Source of the DNA: Actinomycetota bacterium
GTDB lineage: Bacteria; Actinomycetota; Acidimicrobiia; Acidimicrobiales; JAJPHE01
Direction: 5' to 3'
DNA: 64,000 nt
Assembly (NCBI GenBank): GCA_021325435.1
Contig: JAJPHE010000010.1
Location: forward strand, 8,647-72,646
Below, piece after piece: positions 7,164 to 60,067 of this stretch (its first letter is position 1; every line of letters begins with the position of its first letter). The position numbers were made by a program, and so were the translations under genes. The notes beneath the pieces are model-generated. The model was not told the DNA's origin and searched no databases. It saw nothing but the letters and a program-made list of their open reading frames with translations.

Positions 7164-7574
7164 TTACGTAATGAAGCCCAGCTCGCGCCGGATCTGGGCG
7201 TAGAGGTTGACCAGCCGGCCGGCCGAGGTGCCGGCGACGAGGGTGTGGGTGGCGACCGTCTGGGTGGCGGCGCCGATGCGCAGCATGAGCTCGACGAAGC
7301 TCTCCTGGCGGCGGAGCCGGTCGAGGTCCTCGCGGTGTCCCTCGACGAGGAAGTACCCGATCACGTCGTTCATGGGGCCGTCGGCAAAGAAGTAGGGGCG
7401 GAAGCCGGCGATGTCCTCGTCGGCCAGCAGGCGACCGAGATAGCGCGACAAGGCGGTGAACAGCTCCACCGCCAGCGCCTCGCGGCCGGGGATCACCGGG
7501 CCGAACGAGATCATCAGGGCCCCGTCGACATGGGTCGGCTCGGTGTCGAATTCGATGACGTCGTCGTCGGTCAT
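7164..7574 (-). CDS. Hypothetical protein (136 aa)
   Basis: SD GGAG, protein-like composition and high-GC3 codons. Confidence 0.7.
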   Translation of the reverse strand: MTDDDVIEFDTEPTHVDGALMISFGPVIPGREALAVELFTALSRYLGRLLADEDIAGFRPYFFADGPMNDVIGYFLVEGHREDLDRLRRQESFVELMLRIGAATQTVATHTLVAGTSAGRLVNLYAQIRRELGFIT

Positions 7575-45946: not shown

Positions 45947-46243
45947 TCACGGCCGGTTGGCGAGCTCCAGGTCGGTCACCTCACCGTCGTCGGTGAACAC
46001 GGCCGTGAACCGGTGCTCGTCGCCGCCCGCCGACGGCCACGCCACCCCGGTCACCTCGTTTCCGTCCACGTCGTCCGACCGGACGACGACGCCTGCGCCC
46101 AGGCGGGCCTCCACGGCCGCCACCAGGTTGGCGAAGGCGTCAGCTCAGAGGTCTCATCAGAAGTGGTACCAGTGCCCGCCGATCTCCTCGTCGACGTCAC
46201 CCCACGTGGAGCCGCACAAGGCGCACGGTTGGCCCTTCGTCAC
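45947..46243 (-). CDS. Putative tri-selenocysteine protein with a TRASH/YHS-like (Ta0938-like) motif CxxC-x18-UUxxU, 98 aa
   Basis: GTG 46243 overlaps the upstream TGA with SD GGAGG; MTKGQPCALCGSTWGDVDEEIGGHWYHF-TGA-TGA-D-L-TGA-ADAFANLVAAVEARLG...ELANRP-TGA. In-frame TGAs are at 46159-57, 46156-54 and 46147-45. selAB are in the window. Confidence 0.82.
46102..46138 (-). promoter_or_regulatory. Candidate in-frame bacterial SECIS element(s)
   Basis: Two alternative hairpins just 3' of the TGAs: GCCUUC-GCCA-[ACCUGG]-UGGC-GGCCGU-GGAGGC and GGC-GGCC-[GUGGA]-GGCC-C-GCC. Confidence 0.5.
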
Positions 46244-46986
46244 CGGCGCTCACCTCCTTCGGCCTGCTCGGCGTCGATCCGGTTGGCCAGGCGCCAGACG
46301 GCGTCCATCATGCGGCGCAGGCGGGCCATCGACTCGGCCAGCACGGCGAGGATCTCGTCTTGGCGCTCCGGCGGGGTGTGGCGGGCGATGATCTCCACCG
46401 TCTCGTGGCCGTGGCCGGCGTCGGCCTGGTCGCTCACCTCGAAGAACTCGAGGCTGTCGTCGTCGATGCCGAGGGCCCGGGCGTAGGGCTCGGGGTCGAG
46501 CCCGGTGCCGGCGGACAGCCCGTAGGCGGCGGGCAGGTTGCGGTCGCCCAGGATCTCCAGGCCGTTGACGGCGGTAAACCCGACCAGCCAGTCCGGGTGG
46601 CGGGCCTGCTCCCACAGCCAATCGAAGGCGTCGGCCGCCTCGGGTAGGGGCGGGTGGGACTCGATCTCGGCCCGGGTGAGCCCGACGCTCTCACCGAGGC
46701 GCACCAGCAGCTGGTAGTGGTTGTCGTCGCCGGCGGGGTCGCGCACCACCTCGGACATGAGGTTCTCGACCTCGTAGGCGATGACGGAGAACTCGGGGCA
46801 GTTCGAGATGATCGACCCGACCCAACGCGGGAACAGCCGGGAGAACTTCGTCCACTGCAGCACGAAGGCGCGGATCACCCCGACGGTCGGCGCCGAGGCC
46901 ATGGCGGCGATGAGGGCGGGCGGGTGGCGGAACCAGCTGTCGACCACCAGCTGCTCGACCCGGGGGCCCATGGGGTTGTCGCTCAC
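46240..46986 (-). CDS. PqqC/CADD/TenA-like heme-oxygenase-like dimetal (HDO) protein
   Basis: GTG 46986 overlaps the upstream TGA; FPRWVGSIISNCP, ENLMSE...NHYQLL, NGLE and FFEVSDQADAGHG. Confidence 0.8.
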   Translation of the reverse strand: MSDNPMGPRVEQLVVDSWFRHPPALIAAMASAPTVGVIRAFVLQWTKFSRLFPRWVGSIISNCPEFSVIAYEVENLMSEVVRDPAGDDNHYQLLVRLGESVGLTRAEIESHPPLPEAADAFDWLWEQARHPDWLVGFTAVNGLEILGDRNLPAAYGLSAGTGLDPEPYARALGIDDDSLEFFEVSDQADAGHGHETVEIIARHTPPERQDEILAVLAESMARLRRMMDAVWRLANRIDAEQAEGGERR

Positions 46987-47195
46987 CGTCTCACCCGCTG
47001 GCTGCCCACAGTACGACCCGACAGCGCTCCGGCCAGCAGCGGCGCCAACTCCTCGGCGCTGACCCGGTGCTTGGTGACCCGCCGGTTGAGCCACATCACG
47101 TGGCGCCCGTCGCTGGCCTCGGCCCGCTCCACGAGATGGGCGGCCAGCGCCTCGAGGTCGGGCGCCGGCGCCGCGCACACCGGGCAGGCGTCCAT
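46983..47195 (-). other. C2H2-like zinc-finger module (70 aa), possibly also translated separately from ATG 47195
   Basis: CxxC-x12-H-x11-H; GGAG 9 nt upstream of the internal ATG. Confidence 0.65.
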
Positions 47196-48140
47196 CTTCT
47201 CCGGCTCCGTCGCATCGGCGGCGGCACCCGCCGATGAGGAGGCCGGCGCCCGCCGGCTGGCCAGCAGGCCGATGCCCACCCAGGCCAGGTCGACGAGGAG
47301 ATCCCACAGCCGCAGGGCCACCGACAGGGCGGCGGCGTTGCCGAACCCGTAGCGCGAGGAGAGGGTGAGGGCCAGCACGCCTTCGCGCACGCCGAGGCCT
47401 CCGGGGGCGATGCTGACCAGCCCGGCCACGGCGGCGGCGTTGAACGCCCCGACCAGCGGGCCCACGTCGCCCAGGTGGACGGGCAGGAGGGCGGCGGCCA
47501 GGGCGACGAACGCGCCCGACCGCACGACCGAGTTGAGCCCGTACCAGGCGGCGGCCCGGTAGGTGGGCACGGTCCCCTCGGGGCCCCGCAGGGGCGCCGG
47601 CAGCCGGGGGACGAGGGCGGCGGCGATCCGCAGCCCGGCGGGCAGCGCCACCAGGATGAGGACCCCCCCGGCGGCGACGAGGGCCCGGGCCCAGGCGGCC
47701 AGCACCGAGGAGGGCAGCAGGGCGCCGGTCAGGACCGAGCCCCACGCCACGATGACGCCCACCTCGACGGGCAGCGACCAGCCGGCGAGGAAGCGGGGCA
47801 CGCCCTCCCGCCCGGCCAGCACCACCCGGGTGGCCAGAGCGGCCGCCCCCGTCGGCACGTACCGGCTGATCTGGGCCAGCCACCACACCCGCAGGGCCCG
47901 GCCGAGGGGCAGGGCCGACCCGTAGGCGGCCAGCAGCGAGCGCCACCCGACCGGCAGGAGGAGGCCCCCGGCCACGCTGGCCGGGGCGGCCAGGGCGAAC
48001 CAAACCGGGCGGACCCGCAGGTGGATGTGGCGCAGGGAGCTCACGTTGTCGGCGCCGACCCGCACCACCACCACCGCCACCCCGGCCACCAGGGCGAGGC
48101 GGAGCCCCCACGCCCCCCACCGGCGCAGCCCGGGGCTCAC
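46983..48140 (-). CDS. Lysylphosphatidylglycerol-synthase-TM/flippase-like membrane protein fused in frame to a C2H2-like zinc-finger module
   Basis: GTGA overlap at 48140; SRYVP and APGGLGVREG motifs; no stop before MDACPVC...AAHL...DGRHVMWLNR. Confidence 0.8.
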   Translation of the reverse strand: MSPGLRRWGAWGLRLALVAGVAVVVVRVGADNVSSLRHIHLRVRPVWFALAAPASVAGGLLLPVGWRSLLAAYGSALPLGRALRVWWLAQISRYVPTGAAALATRVVLAGREGVPRFLAGWSLPVEVGVIVAWGSVLTGALLPSSVLAAWARALVAAGGVLILVALPAGLRIAAALVPRLPAPLRGPEGTVPTYRAAAWYGLNSVVRSGAFVALAAALLPVHLGDVGPLVGAFNAAAVAGLVSIAPGGLGVREGVLALTLSSRYGFGNAAALSVALRLWDLLVDLAWVGIGLLASRRAPASSSAGAAADATEPEKMDACPVCAAPAPDLEALAAHLVERAEASDGRHVMWLNRRVTKHRVSAEELAPLLAGALSGRTVGSQRVRR

Positions 48141-49258
48141 CGGCCCAGCACCCGCCGGTAGGCGGCGGCGTGGGCCTCGGCCACCGCCGCGGGGTCGTGG
48201 GCGGCCACCGCGGCGGCGGCGGTGACGGCGGGCAGGGGCAGCCGGCGCAGGGCGGCGGCCAGGGCGTCGGGGTCGTCGGGGGGAACGAGGACGCCGTCGT
48301 CGCCGACCGTCTCGACCAACCCCCCCACCGCGCTGGCCACCACCGGCCGGCCCCGGGCCAGGGCGTCGACGGCGATGAGGCCGAGGCCCTCCCGCCGGCT
48401 GGGGACCACCAGGGCGTGCGCCTCGTCGATGCGGCGCACCAGGTCCGGGCGGCCGCCCGCCCCCACCAGCTCGACGGCGCCGGACGCCGAGGCCAGGGCC
48501 CGCAGGGGCGCCTCGAGGGGACCGTCGCCCATCAGCACCAGGCGCACCGCGAACCCGTCGGCTGCCAGCCGGTTGACGGCGGAGATGGCGACGTCGAACC
48601 CCTTCTCGGGCATGAGCCGGCCGCAGGCGAACAGCCGCAGCGGGGGGTGGGGCGGCAGGGCCGCCGGCGGCGCCGGGTCGGGCACCACCGGCATGCGCAG
48701 CACCTCCACGGCCCCCCCGGTCACCCCCGCCACCTCGGAGGCCAGGGCGTCGGACACGGCGGCGACCAGGGCGGCCCGGCGCAGCACGGCCCGGGCTACG
48801 GGCCGCAGGCGGGGGCGGCCGGCCAGGTGGACGTCGGAGCCGTGGCAGGTGACGACGAGGGGCACGCCGGCGGCCCGGGCCGCCACCACGCCGGCGGCCC
48901 CGGCGGGCAGCCACCAGTGGGCGTGGACCAGGTCGACCCGCTGGCGGCGGGCGGCCCGGCCGGCGGCGGCGGCGAAGGCGGCGAGGAAGCCGGGGAGGGC
49001 GGCGGCCCCGACCGGGGTGGTGGCGGTGCGCATCAGGCCGCCCTGGTAGGCGAGGACCTGGAGCCCTTCGGGGGCGTAGCGGAAGCGGTGCACCGGCGCC
49101 CCGATGACGTCGTCCTCGGGCAACCCCGGCGCGTGGGGGGCCAGCACCGACGGGGAGATCCCGGCGCGGGTCTGGGCGGCCACCAGCTCGGCCAGGTAGG
49201 GAGCCTGGTGGTCCCCCTCCCACCGGGGGAACGAGGACGTGAGGTGGAGGACCTTCAC
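48137..49258 (-). CDS. GT4-family glycosyltransferase
   Basis: TSSFPRW, HAHWW, VTCHGSD, GRLMPEKG and EGLGLIAVDALARG (atypical EX7D). Confidence 0.92.
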   Translation of the reverse strand: MKVLHLTSSFPRWEGDHQAPYLAELVAAQTRAGISPSVLAPHAPGLPEDDVIGAPVHRFRYAPEGLQVLAYQGGLMRTATTPVGAAALPGFLAAFAAAAGRAARRQRVDLVHAHWWLPAGAAGVVAARAAGVPLVVTCHGSDVHLAGRPRLRPVARAVLRRAALVAAVSDALASEVAGVTGGAVEVLRMPVVPDPAPPAALPPHPPLRLFACGRLMPEKGFDVAISAVNRLAADGFAVRLVLMGDGPLEAPLRALASASGAVELVGAGGRPDLVRRIDEAHALVVPSRREGLGLIAVDALARGRPVVASAVGGLVETVGDDGVLVPPDDPDALAAALRRLPLPAVTAAAAVAAHDPAAVAEAHAAAYRRVLGR

Positions 49259-57035: not shown

Positions 57036-58325
57036 GTGAGGCCCCCCTCCGTCGACGCCGTGGCCCGGTCCCTGTCCGACCTGGGGCTCCCCCACCCCCT
57101 GCTGGTCGACGCCGCCCGCGAGGCGATCGCCGCCGGCGACCCGGACTCGGCCCGCCAGCGGGCGACGATGGTGGCCCGGGCCCTGCTCCGACCGGTGATC
57201 AACGCCACCGGCGTGCTGCTCCACACCAACCTGGGGAGGGCCCCGCTCGAGGTCCACCATCCCGCCCGCTACACCAACCTCGAGCTGGACCTGGCCACCG
57301 GCCGGCGGGGATCGCGCAGCGCCCATGCCGCCGCCCTCCTGGCCCGGGCGGCGGGGGCGGAGGCGGCCCTGGTCGTCAACAACGGCGCCGGCGCCGTGCT
57401 CCTGGCCCTGGCCGCCCTGGCCGCCGGGCGCTCGGTCGTGGTCAGCCGGGGCGAGCTGGTCGAGATCGGCGGCGGGTTCCGCATCCCGGAGGTGATGGCC
57501 GGATCCGGCGCCCGCCTGGTGGAGGTGGGCACCACCAACCGGACCCGCCTCGGGGACTACCGGGCCGCCCTCGACGACGACGTGGCCGTGGTGCTCAAGG
57601 TGCACCAGTCCAACTACCGCATCGTCGGGTTCACCGAGGACGTGGGGCTGGCCGCCCTGGCCGGGCTGGGCCCGCCCGTCGTCTACGACATCGGATCCGG
57701 GCTGCTCGACGAGGCCACCCCCTGGCTGACCGGCGGACCGCCCCGCTGGCTGGCCGGGGAGCCGGCCGCCCGCCAGTCGCTCGAGCGGGGGGCGGCGCTG
57801 GTCACCTTCTCCGGGGACAAGCTGCTGGGCGGCCCCCAGGCCGGCGTCATCGCCGGCCGCTCCGACCTGGTCGCCGCCTGCGCCCGCCACCCGCTGGCCC
57901 GGGCCCTGCGCCCCGGCCCCCTGGTGCTGGCCGCCCTGCAGGAGACCGCCCTCGCCTACCTCGACCGCCGGGGCGAGGACATCCCGTTCTGGCGGATGGC
58001 CACCACCCCGCCGGCCGAGCTGCGCCGCCGGGCCGAGCGTCTGGCCGCCGCCGTGCCCGGCGGCGAGGTGGTGGACTGCGCGTCGACCCCCGGGGGCGGA
58101 TCGCTTCCGGGCCTCGAGATCCCGTCGGTGGGGGTGGCCCTGGCCGGCGACCACGCCGCCGCCCTGCGCCAGGCCCCGGTGCCGGTCATCGCCCGGGTGT
58201 CCGACGGGCGCACCGTCGCCGACCTGCGGGCCGTGGACCCGGCCGACGACGCTGCCCTGGGCCAGGCCCTGGCCGCCGCGGCAGCCCACGGCAGGGGCAG
58301 CGGCGACAGCGGCAGCGCCGGCTAG
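57036..58325 (+). CDS. selA: L-seryl-tRNA(Sec) selenium transferase
   Basis: VINATGVLLHTNLGRAP, VVNNGAGA, SRGELVEIGGGFRIP, EVGTTN and FSGDKLLGGPQAG (PLP Lys). Confidence 0.96.
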   Translation: MRPPSVDAVARSLSDLGLPHPLLVDAAREAIAAGDPDSARQRATMVARALLRPVINATGVLLHTNLGRAPLEVHHPARYTNLELDLATGRRGSRSAHAAALLARAAGAEAALVVNNGAGAVLLALAALAAGRSVVVSRGELVEIGGGFRIPEVMAGSGARLVEVGTTNRTRLGDYRAALDDDVAVVLKVHQSNYRIVGFTEDVGLAALAGLGPPVVYDIGSGLLDEATPWLTGGPPRWLAGEPAARQSLERGAALVTFSGDKLLGGPQAGVIAGRSDLVAACARHPLARALRPGPLVLAALQETALAYLDRRGEDIPFWRMATTPPAELRRRAERLAAAVPGGEVVDCASTPGGGSLPGLEIPSVGVALAGDHAAALRQAPVPVIARVSDGRTVADLRAVDPADDAALGQALAAAAAHGRGSGDSGSAG

Positions 58326-58330
58326 GCCCA

Positions 58331-60067
58331 GTGCACGTCGTCGCCACCGCCGGCCACGTCGACCACGGCAAGTCGACGCTGGTGCTGGCCCTCACCGGCA
58401 CCGACCCCGACCGCTTCGCCGAGGAGAAGGCCCGGGGCCTCACCATCGACCTCGGCTTCGCCTGGATGGCCCTGCCCTCGGGGGCCGAGCTGGCCTTTGT
58501 GGACGTCCCCGGCCACGTCCGGTTCATCAAGAACATGCTGGCCGGGGTGGGGGCGGTCGACGCCTGCGTCTTCGTCGTGGCCGCCACCGAGGGCTGGAAG
58601 CCTCAGTCCGAGGAGCACCTCCGCATCCTCGAGCTGCTCGGGGTCACCCACGGGCTGGTCGCCCTCACCAAGGTGGGGCTGGTCGACGAGGAATGGGAGG
58701 CGTTGGCCCGCATGGAGGTGGCCGACCACCTGGCCGGCACCTTCCTCGAGGACGCCGACGTCGTCGGGGTCGACGCCGTGGCCGGGCGGGGGGTCGGGGA
58801 GCTGGTCGCCGCCCTCGACCGGCTGGTCGGCTCCACCCCCACGTCGGCCGACCGGGGCCGGCCCCGGCTGTGGGTCGACCGGGCCTTCGCCGCCCGGGGG
58901 GCGGGGACGGTGGTGACCGGCACCCTGGCCGGCGGCCAGCTCGCCGTCGACGACGAGGTCGAGCTGGTCCCCGCCCCGGGGCGGTCGCCGCTGCGGGTCC
59001 GGGCCCTCCAGTCCCACGGCCGGCCCCGCGACCGGGTCGGCCCCGGCCACCGGGTGGCGGTGAACGTGGCCGGGGTGTCCCACGACCGGGTGGGGCGGGG
59101 CCAGGCCCTCGTCCGCCCGGGCCAGTGGGCGCCCACCAGCGTGTTCGACGCCTCCCTCGCCGTCCTGGCCGGGCTGGACCACGACGTCAGCCGGCGGGGC
59201 GCCTACCACGCCTACCTCGGCTCGGGCGAGCACCCCGCCCGTATCCGCCTGCTGGGGCCGGAGTCCATCCCCCCCGGCGGCGCCGGCCTGGTGCGGGTCC
59301 ACCTGCCCACGGCCCTGCCCCTGCTGCCCGGCGACCGCTACGTGCTGCGCGAGTCCGGCCGGGCCGAGACCGTCGGAGGCGGGGAGATCCTCGACGTGGC
59401 CCCGGTGCTGCCGGCGGCCCGGGCCCGTCCCGACCGCTCGGTCGACCGGGTGGTGGCCGAGCGGGGCTGGGTGGACGCCGGACTATTGGAGCGGCTGACC
59501 GGCGAGGCCCGGGCCCCCGACGTCGGGCGGTGGGTGGTGGCCCCGGCCGCCCTGGCCGAGACGGTCGGGACGGTGCGCCGGGCGGTGGCCGAAGCCGGGC
59601 CGCTGGGGCTGGACGTGGCCTCGCTCACCGACCGGCAGCGGGCCGTCCTCGACCGCCTGGACGACGTGGTCGTCGACGCCGGGCGGGCCCGGCCGTCAGC
59701 GGCGGCGGACGCCTCGGCCCAGCTGGGGTCCCACCCCTACGTGGCCGCCCTCGAGGCGGCGCCGTTCACCCCACCCCCGCCCGACGGGGTGGACCGGGCC
59801 GAGCTCTCCCAGCTGGTGCGGCGGGGCCTGGTCGTGGAGCGCGACGGCTGCTACTTCGCCCCGGCGGCGGTGGACGCCGCCGGCCGGCGCATCGCCGCCC
59901 TCCTCGTGGACCGGCCCGACGGGGTGACGGTGGCCGAGGTGCGCGACGCCCTGGGCACGACCCGCAAGTACCTGCTGCCGCTGCTGGCCCACCTCGACGC
60001 CACCGGCGTCACCCGACGGCGCGGCGACCTGCGGGTCGGGGGGCCACGGCTGCCGCAACCCGCCTGA
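58331..60067 (+). CDS. selB: Selenocysteine-specific elongation factor
   Basis: AGHVDHGKST, EEKARGLTIDLGF, DVPGHVRFIKNML and C-terminal winged helix RDALGTTRKY..PLL..LD. Confidence 0.96.
   Translation: MHVVATAGHVDHGKSTLVLALTGTDPDRFAEEKARGLTIDLGFAWMALPSGAELAFVDVPGHVRFIKNMLAGVGAVDACVFVVAATEGWKPQSEEHLRILELLGVTHGLVALTKVGLVDEEWEALARMEVADHLAGTFLEDADVVGVDAVAGRGVGELVAALDRLVGSTPTSADRGRPRLWVDRAFAARGAGTVVTGTLAGGQLAVDDEVELVPAPGRSPLRVRALQSHGRPRDRVGPGHRVAVNVAGVSHDRVGRGQALVRPGQWAPTSVFDASLAVLAGLDHDVSRRGAYHAYLGSGEHPARIRLLGPESIPPGGAGLVRVHLPTALPLLPGDRYVLRESGRAETVGGGEILDVAPVLPAARARPDRSVDRVVAERGWVDAGLLERLTGEARAPDVGRWVVAPAALAETVGTVRRAVAEAGPLGLDVASLTDRQRAVLDRLDDVVVDAGRARPSAAADASAQLGSHPYVAALEAAPFTPPPPDGVDRAELSQLVRRGLVVERDGCYFAPAAVDAAGRRIAALLVDRPDGVTVAEVRDALGTTRKYLLPLLAHLDATGVTRRRGDLRVGGPRLPQPA

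Follow-up and report, generated by a model that had tools for sequence, protein, structure and literature searches.

A candidate selenoprotein of the Ta0938 family with three clustered UGA codons and a putative distal insertion element in uncultured Acidimicrobiia

A 64,000-nucleotide stretch of DNA from an uncultured Acidimicrobiia bacterium (GenBank assembly GCA_021325435.1, contig JAJPHE010000010.1, positions 8,647 to 72,646; hereafter the window) contains, on the minus strand at 45947-46243, a gene of 98 codons whose reading frame is crossed by three UGA codons within 15 nucleotides (nt). We propose herein, with a probability of roughly 0.8, that this gene encodes one 98-residue protein of the Ta0938 family, and that its three UGAs are read as selenocysteine (Sec, U) by the SelA, SelB, SelD and tRNA-Sec of the same genome. 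The archaeal arrangement C-x2-C...C-C-x2-C would thereby become C-x2-C...U-U-x2-U, with Sec replacing the cysteines that form a metal (or metal/redox) site. The parts of this proposal differ in strength. A full-length read-through product is very probable and Sec at all three UGAs is probable, while the assignment of one downstream hairpin, hairpin 2, as the single Sec insertion sequence (SECIS) is slightly favored over its denial. As judged from comparative sequence analysis, the gene appears to represent a real, previously undescribed family of multi-Sec selenoproteins.

The gene and its protein family

The elements of the gene that bear on this proposal are as follows.

45947..46243, minus strand: candidate selenoprotein gene of the Ta0938 family, 98 codons plus a TGA stop (translation, PF11494, AlphaFold2)
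46253..46257, minus strand: Shine-Dalgarno (SD) sequence GGAGG, 9 nt 5' of the GTG start (from sequence)
46214..46225, minus strand: first ligand pair C7-x-x-C10, ordinary TGC codons, invariant in 32/32 aligned homologues
46145..46159, minus strand: putative U29-U30-D-L-U33 cluster, UGA-UGA-GAC-CUC-UGA (sequence; alignment on the CC-x-x-C of 2FQH)

The minus strand from 46243 to 45947 reads VTKGQPCALCGSTWGDVDEEIGGHWYHF-U-U-DL-U-ADAFANLV...ANRP-stop, also written V/M-TKGQPCALCGSTWGDVDEEIGGHWYHF-U-U-DL-U-ADAFANLVAAVEARLGAGVVVRSDDVDGN...ANRP. The in-frame TGAs (codons 29, 30 and 33) occupy 46159-46157, 46156-46154 and 46147-46145, and the terminal stop is likewise a TGA (45949-45947). The initial annotation, which did not give a strand, had claimed three in-frame UGAs for this interval; they are found on the minus strand, and a plus-strand reading of 45947-46243 was discarded because it gives a meaningless translation. 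Its description of the frame was also borne out. The GTG start (46243-46241) and the TGA stop of the gene upstream (46242-46240) overlap as GTGA, with GGAGG ahead of the start, the gene is missed by the list of open reading frames (ORFs), which breaks it into pieces, and its coding character continues past the third UGA. The GC content at codon positions 1/2/3 is 0.80/0.48/0.94 over codons 34-98, compared with 0.73/0.45/0.96 for the upstream gene; at the third position alone (GC3), it is 0.93 before the UGAs and 0.69 beyond the final stop. TGA is the commonest ordinary stop codon of this genome, ending 816 of 1162 long high-GC3 ORFs (70%), and thus the genetic code has not been reassigned.

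The codons F-U-U-D (46152-46161, minus strand) spell CUGAUGAG, which is the core box of the hammerhead ribozyme. An Rfam gathering scan and a tRNA scan of the 64-kb window found nothing, and the hammerhead match is taken as a coincidence of UUC-UGA-UGA-G.

The gene product is a full-length member of the Ta0938 family, a small protein in which an alpha/beta domain comes after a putative Cys-rich metal site. The initial annotation had suggested translating the UGAs as Cys and searching with the product; with U read as C, the protein matches the PF11494 (Ta0938) profile at 62.6 bits (cut-off 27) over profile positions 3-89 of 92, and it scores 44.3 bits with the stops left in the sequence. The one real match among PDB sequences is 2FQH, the Ta0938 protein of Thermoplasma acidophilum (phmmer 8e-10), which we take to be a Zn-binding protein. 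In the alignment, CALCGaTWGD...FCCDiCA of 2FQH is matched by CALCGsTWGD...F-UU-DL-U-A of the window, so that the three UGAs fall exactly on CC-x-x-C, where Cys had been expected. The five-ligand layout C-x2-C...C-C-x2-C is retained, with Cys or Sec at all five columns in 32/32 sequences, and A34, F37 and N39, which are encoded in frame 3' of the UGAs, are shared with the archaeal proteins. Of the two affiliations offered earlier, the likeness to Ta0938 stands and that to TRASH/YHS-type proteins does not, as both TRASH_HVO_1752_C (26.2 bits, cut-off 27) and Pfam YHS (20.2 bits, cut-off 30.3) remain below threshold. No model of NCBIfam release 20 matches the protein, even at E<=1.

An AlphaFold2 model built with the 32-sequence alignment (pLDDT 92.5, pTM 0.85) shows a loop/hairpin region at the N terminus, a sheet of four strands and, beginning at the Sec cluster, a long helix (residues 31-48). 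A Foldseek search with this model found no match in the PDB at E<0.001, and, as 2FQH itself was not recovered, its outcome is not informative.

Recurrence of the UGA columns among relatives

The bacterial comparison set consisted of 22 distinct sequences, namely the window gene and 21 others from metagenomes and from metagenome-assembled genomes (MAGs) of Acidimicrobiia and Actinomycetes; all carriers are uncultured. Relatives were sought with a PF11494 search of 401 genomes of the same class and with pattern scans covering 185,579 species genomes as well as JGI metagenomes. The profile search returned this genome and one more, from a different family, which also contains three TGAs (WYHF-UU-GL-U-ADAFAG). 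The pattern scans added nine MAG and ten metagenome loci of the form [C/U]-U-xx-U, all from Acidimicrobiia or 'Actinomycetes' MAGs, whereas every archaeal locus from the same scans (Sulfolobaceae, Thermoplasmata, Nitrososphaerota and Heimdallarchaeota) is C-C-x-x-C. Among the bacterial sequences, columns 30 and 33 are TGA in 22/22, and column 29 is TGA in 15/22 and TGC/TGT in 7/22. The alternation between UGA and TGC/TGT that had been proposed as a test is thus seen at column 29, and columns 30 and 33 are UGA in bacteria as opposed to Cys in archaea. Recurrence of the TGA columns in 21 other sequences is beyond what chance would be expected to produce.

In a maximum-likelihood tree, the bacterial Sec forms make up a single clade (100/100) separate from the archaeal Cys forms. 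Column 29 switched between C and U at least twice, and most parsimoniously three times; for example, L046 (C-U) is nested within a well-supported U-U clade. The dN/dS ratio is 0.23 before the UGAs and 0.45-0.49 after them, and not one frameshift or extra stop is found in the 22 sequences.

The annotated record of the family is fragmentary. In a database of 5.8 billion proteins, only C-terminal fragments with called starts 3' of the UGAs were recovered, and the contigs behind these fragments carry the full UU-xx-U gene. An exhaustive search of 1.84 billion representatives with a hidden Markov model showed the family to be small, with 30 clusters at E<=1e-10, the full-length members of which are all FFCCxxC; eight further clusters hold N-terminal fragments of 26-31 residues that end exactly in ...HF or ...HFC. 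All public copies recovered from these protein databases have been annotated in two pieces.

Two ordinary explanations for in-frame stops, namely a pseudogene or a sequencing or assembly error, had been named in the initial annotation as grounds for giving up the selenoprotein, and both are effectively refuted. An independent Logan contig (2017 soil metagenome run, depth ~30) retains all three TGAs; its three differences from the window locus are two synonymous changes and D31E. Four metatranscriptome runs on soil or rhizosphere, from different studies, yielded contigs (~84% identical to the window) that span 46047-46237 with the TGAs unchanged; they stem from relatives and not from this strain, and DNA can be present in libraries of this type. 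In favor of decay is a metagenome locus, L062, that diverges directly past the third UGA. Against it, the same TGAs recur in 22 distinct sequences from many studies and agree with the independent 30x assembly, dN/dS is below 1, GC3 downstream is 0.94, and the frame is intact in the whole comparison set.

The divergent locus (L062:960-1162, metagenome contig OFHJ01008013.1) reads HF-C-U-HL-U, and immediately past the third UGA all similarity is lost. The gene may be broken, or the contig may be chimeric.

Decoding of the UGAs

The two genes for Sec synthesis and insertion that had been noted in the window were both identified above their model cut-offs.

57036..58325, plus strand: selA, selenocysteine synthase (TIGR00474, 417 bits, above cut-off)
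58331..60067, plus strand: selB, Sec-specific elongation factor (TIGR00475, 263 bits, above cut-off, with an additional C-terminal match at model positions 536-575)

The genes for tRNA-Sec (selC) and SelD, the presence of which had been left to be checked, lie elsewhere in the genome. The selD gene (C65:37510-38430, minus strand, outside the window) itself encodes a selenoprotein (GAG-U-ACK), with a conserved hairpin, AGCUCGC(C)...G(G)CGAGCU, beginning 7 nt past its UGA; a Sec-type selD is present in just 2 of 10 other carrier genomes. A canonical Sec site also occurs in the gene for the formate dehydrogenase alpha subunit (FdhA; contig C74, UGA at 7360; ...QARI-U-HSSTVPS), with the hairpin GUUCCCA-GUU-UGGGGAC (7 bp, GUU loop) starting 12 nt after the UGA. 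Two tRNA-Sec genes were found (C66:13136-13231, 66.5 bits; C125:2207-2307, 68.5 bits), both with a UCA anticodon, G73 and a long variable arm. The contig of the second copy, C125, has a length of 10,969 nt and a GC content of 67.3%, compared with ~73% for C60 and C66, and this copy may be contamination, an island or a real duplicate. The idea that two tRNA-Sec genes are an adaptation to multiple UGAs was rejected as unsupported, since nine other carriers have one and the second copy is on the lower-GC contig. Among the ten other carrier genomes, selA and selD are present in 10/10 and tRNA-Sec in 9/10 (one copy each).

From the HF codons to 100 nt downstream, the alignment of the 22 bacterial sequences has no gaps; two conserved hairpins lie in this region.

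46088..46141, minus strand: hairpin 1, putative spacer, with a 12-bp lower stem (46141-46130 with 46099-46088), starting 3 nt after the third UGA
46070..46087, minus strand: hairpin 2, GUCGUCC-GGUC-GGACGAC, candidate SelB-binding SECIS (conservation, criteria for bacterial SECIS)

Hairpin 1 folds in 22/22 sequences (-21 to -40 kcal/mol). Its lower stem, GACGCCUUCGCC paired with GGYGARGGCGUC, is 90.5% paired, and its upper stem and apex are variable, the upper stem having five pairs with compensatory double changes. Hairpin 2 is near-invariant and 98.7% paired; it begins at the nucleotide right after the last paired base of hairpin 1, which is 57, 66 and 69 nt past UGA3, UGA2 and UGA1, respectively. 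When all three helices are taken together, 86.7% of cells pair versus 29-57% in slid controls, and the covariation score of the whole structure (0.136, versus 0.03-0.06 in slid controls) was reached by 0/500 shuffles.

The codons for V53, V54, R55 and S56, which lie in hairpin 2, are GTC GTC CGG TCG throughout (0/86 minority codons), compared with 50/132 minority codons at the degenerate positions of CALCGSTWG, an equally invariant peptide. The single amino-acid change within the hairpin, D57G in L042, converts a U-A pair to U.G and keeps the pairing. The VVRSDD segment that encodes hairpin 2 is missing from the archaeal proteins. A homologue on a 500-nt contig (L027:139-378, GCA_040960765.1) lacks the N-terminal CxxC...UUxxU part and begins MTTEPLRPAGAPLADDDPRAAFANLV...; it keeps the exact hairpin 2 sequence, and its hairpin 1 is partly decayed (8/12 pairs).

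The consensus model of the bacterial SECIS (bSECIS) has a loop of 3-9 nt, a stem of 4-16 bp, a G in the first two loop positions, a minimum free energy (MFE) of <= -7.5 kcal/mol, and a spacing of 16-37 nt from the UGA (PMC13188914). In shape, hairpin 2 conforms to this model: its GGUC loop has 4 nt and its stem 7 bp, and its MFE is -10.8 kcal/mol. No SECIS was found at the canonical distance in the 22 sequences, the nearer hairpins failing either the G rule or conservation. The apex of hairpin 1 was rejected as a canonical SECIS; it lies at the right distance, but its loops are unrelated and contain the required G in just 3/22. Also rejected was a hairpin seen in the window only (hairpin A, 46138-46107), which is not a family feature, being 55% paired across the 22 sequences, equal to shuffles, with no covariation. 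A genome-wide scan for GGUC-loop hairpins after an in-frame TGA gave credible matches at this gene and selD only, and no further selenoproteins.

These features may be combined into a mechanism. Hairpin 2, with its invariant GGUC loop, would be the SelB-binding SECIS, and hairpin 1 would be a folded spacer that keeps it beside the mRNA entrance of the ribosome; because hairpin 2 directly abuts hairpin 1, its distance in space from the UGA cluster would then be no more than a few nucleotides. The ribosome holds roughly 9-12 nt 3' of the A site within its mRNA channel. Decoding of UGA1 and UGA2 would accordingly leave hairpin 1 untouched, and decoding of UGA3 would open no more than its lowest 5-7 pairs. 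As hairpin 2 would stay folded throughout all three events, SelB could bind to it anew for each insertion. A canonical hairpin 11 nt past UGA1, on the other hand, would already be entering the ribosome when UGA3 is read. We give about even odds to this arrangement, in which a single distal SelB-binding hairpin serves three UGAs within 15 nt by means of an 'accordion' spacer unwound stepwise.

Several observations weigh against the proposal. The loop of hairpin 2 is 64, 73 and 76 nt from UGA3, UGA2 and UGA1 and fails the 16-37 nt rule, and the thermodynamic z of the whole element (-1.44) is not significant in a 71% GC background. Hairpin 2 persists in L027, a variant without the UGA motif. A GGUCA hairpin that follows a spacer hairpin in selD is not conserved in two relatives, and GGUC is therefore not proven as the SelB signal of this lineage; selD was considered as a control for the 'spacer + GGUC hairpin' arrangement and is partly useful in that respect, its spacer hairpin being conserved in the two relatives, but it is not used as support. 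Three successive SelB-dependent insertions should be inefficient. Finally, selA is present in 273/401 genomes of the class (68%), and its co-occurrence with the gene (p ~0.014) is, because of this wide distribution, modest evidence.

The alternative that we take most seriously, though we consider it doubtful, accepts SelB-dependent decoding and places the SECIS elsewhere, namely in hairpin 1 as a whole, in a lineage-specific signal, or in a tertiary structure of both hairpins. Hairpin 2 might then be conserved for mRNA stability, ribosome pausing or a peptide constraint, which would fit its retention in L027 without any UGA. Moreover, the apex of hairpin 1 in the window is ~30 nt from UGA3, inside the 16-37 nt range, and the selD and fdhA hairpins of this genome do not require a GGUC loop. 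Nonetheless, the apical loops of hairpin 1 are unrelated in sequence, with G in the first two loop positions in 3/22, whereas hairpin 2 agrees with every bSECIS criterion but spacing, shows zero synonymous variation, and keeps its pairing through the D-to-G change. Far less probable is an ordinary Cys protein, produced if the UGAs were read through as Cys or another residue by tRNA-ReC or near-cognate tRNAs. ReC tRNAs carry the CysRS determinant U73; both tRNA-Sec-like genes of this genome have G73, a UCA anticodon and a long variable arm, and score 66-68 bits on the tRNA-Sec model. The second of these genes could be cited for such read-through, as could the enrichment of tRNA-ReC in genomes with UxxU hydrogenases, in the study of which the authors caution that such UGAs may be Cys (PMC13582414), but the nine other carrier genomes in which tRNA-Sec was found have exactly one each. 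In addition, keeping UGA where TGC would be far more efficient requires a selective reason, and Sec supplies one.

A further explanation, which we regard as very improbable, is that two products are made, a 28-residue CxxC peptide that ends at the first UGA and a C-terminal domain initiated independently at an internal GTG. Fragments of exactly this kind, N- and C-terminal, are what gene callers have produced in public databases, and L027 shows that the N-terminal motif is not needed for the C-terminal domain to exist. However, two products leave unexplained the location of the TGAs exactly on three Cys columns, the TGC/TGA alternation at column 29 and the fixed x-x spacing. In the stretch between the UGAs and the called start (residues 31-43), the archaeal A34, F37 and N39 are kept in frame, and there is no conserved SD sequence ahead of the internal GTG.

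Neighboring genes and comparison with known systems

Two genes upstream of the candidate selenoprotein gene complete a conserved trio.

46240..46986, minus strand: haem-oxygenase-like (HO-like)/TENA/PqqC/CADD-like iron enzyme, upstream operon partner (PF14518, PF03070; TIGR04305 weak; PDB 4LQX 3e-18)
46983..47195, minus strand: small zinc-finger gene, zf-C2H2_9 (DUF5810), first of the trio (PF16293)

In all bacterial loci, the Ta0938-type gene follows a zf-C2H2_9 gene and an HO-like gene. In archaea, a single protein encoded directly upstream of Ta0938 combines both domains, and a structure exists for this fusion (4LQX). The trio is thus an ancient module, as these domains adjoin Ta0938 in both bacteria and archaea. 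The bacterial copy was probably acquired from archaea once, since the bacterial Sec forms make up one clade. The Ta0938-type protein would act together with the products of both linked genes, most likely as a donor or holder of metal, or as an electron carrier, for the HO-like iron enzyme, and the use of Sec for Cys would alter ligand softness, pKa and redox behavior.

Three side observations concern the neighborhood. In the window (46983-49223, minus strand), zf-C2H2_9 and, upstream of it, an LPG_synthase_TM-like membrane domain occupy one open frame of 746 codons. Relatives have the zinc finger as a gene of its own (74-101 residues), and an ATG at 47195, with an SD-like GGAG, suggests that it has its own start in the window too. 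In one relative (L025:3872-6376, minus strand), the gene adjoining the Ta0938-Sec gene encodes a DnaB helicase split by an intein with a LAGLIDADG endonuclease. A 490-residue protein of the representative library (P0013) has an all-Cys Ta0938 domain fused to a C-terminal alpha/beta-hydrolase-like region, which hints at an enzymatic partner other than the HO-like protein.

If the proposal is true, U-U-x-x-U, the densest Sec cluster proposed for a bacterial protein, would represent the first natural consecutive Sec-Sec insertion in bacteria, a new SECIS architecture and a tri-selenolate metal site. The gene could serve as a direct test system for SelB reloading on consecutive codons and for the strictness of the spacing rule, and it could provide parts for engineering multi-Sec proteins. 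It would also link a selenolate-rich metal site to an HO-like iron enzyme. Pipelines that demand a SECIS at the canonical distance, such as bSECISearch validation, would miss real families of this kind.

The closest known relatives are the archaeal Ta0938 proteins (PF11494; 2FQH), which share the full-length family, the CALCG(S/A)TWG...FCCxxC layout and the zf-C2H2_9 and TENA/HO-like neighbor. They are all-Cys, whereas the window clade is bacterial (Acidimicrobiia), has UGA/putative Sec at two to three ligand positions, and contains the additional VVRSDD segment. Sec insertion in bacteria is commonly taught as one UGA with one hairpin 11 nt downstream, and the SECIS of Escherichia coli fdhF and Moorella thermoacetica fdhA both present a GGUC loop. 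The present hairpin resembles them as a short hairpin with G-G-U in its apical loop. It differs from these canonical minimal hairpins, which lie 11 nt past a single UGA, in that it starts 57-69 nt away and has no bulged U. In the E. coli SECIS, G23 and U24 are essential (PMC8659212). Eukaryotic selenoprotein P likewise has multiple Sec decoded processively from one mRNA, but with a 3'-UTR SECIS/SBP2 mechanism, no homology and a different biology.

The initial annotation knew of no selenoprotein version of this family, and none turned up in the sources consulted here. The Ta0938 Sec family is missing from NCBIfam release 20 and from the 119 families and subfamilies of prokaryotic selenoproteins tabulated in a 2026 review (PMC13188914), and a literature search pairing Ta0938 with selenoprotein found no paper. 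In that inventory, proteins contain at most three Sec and no adjacent Sec (PMC13188914). The known bacterial multi-Sec proteins have UxxU, UxxxxU or Sec in separate domains. Among the entries of the inventory, the YHS domain-containing selenoprotein NF041384 is similar in that a ligand Cys of a small TRASH/YHS-like metal-binding domain is replaced by Sec (PMC13188914); it belongs to another family, with the motif GxU and one Sec as opposed to three, and no NCBIfam match to it or any other model was obtained at E<=1.

A further comparison is with the bacterial double-Sec motifs, that is, UxxU in group-4 [NiFeSe] hydrogenases (PMC13582414), and the UxxU metal-binding protein NF041115, the FmdB family and MbdU (PMC13188914). 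There, too, Sec residues close to each other replace metal-binding Cys, and one downstream SECIS has been proposed for more than one UGA. For the hydrogenases, a search within ~40-60 nt of the UGA yielded SECIS candidates, and the 2026 paper raises the question of a single SECIS for UxxU along with the tRNA-ReC caveat (PMC13582414); the candidate loop of the window gene is 64-76 nt off, behind a spacer hairpin. The new elements, namely a UGA-UGA pair with a third UGA close by, conserved in about 15 lineages, and an invariant hairpin at a distance, appear well supported by the sequence comparisons. While the known motifs contain two Sec that are never adjacent, the window gene would place three within five residues, including a UGA-UGA pair.

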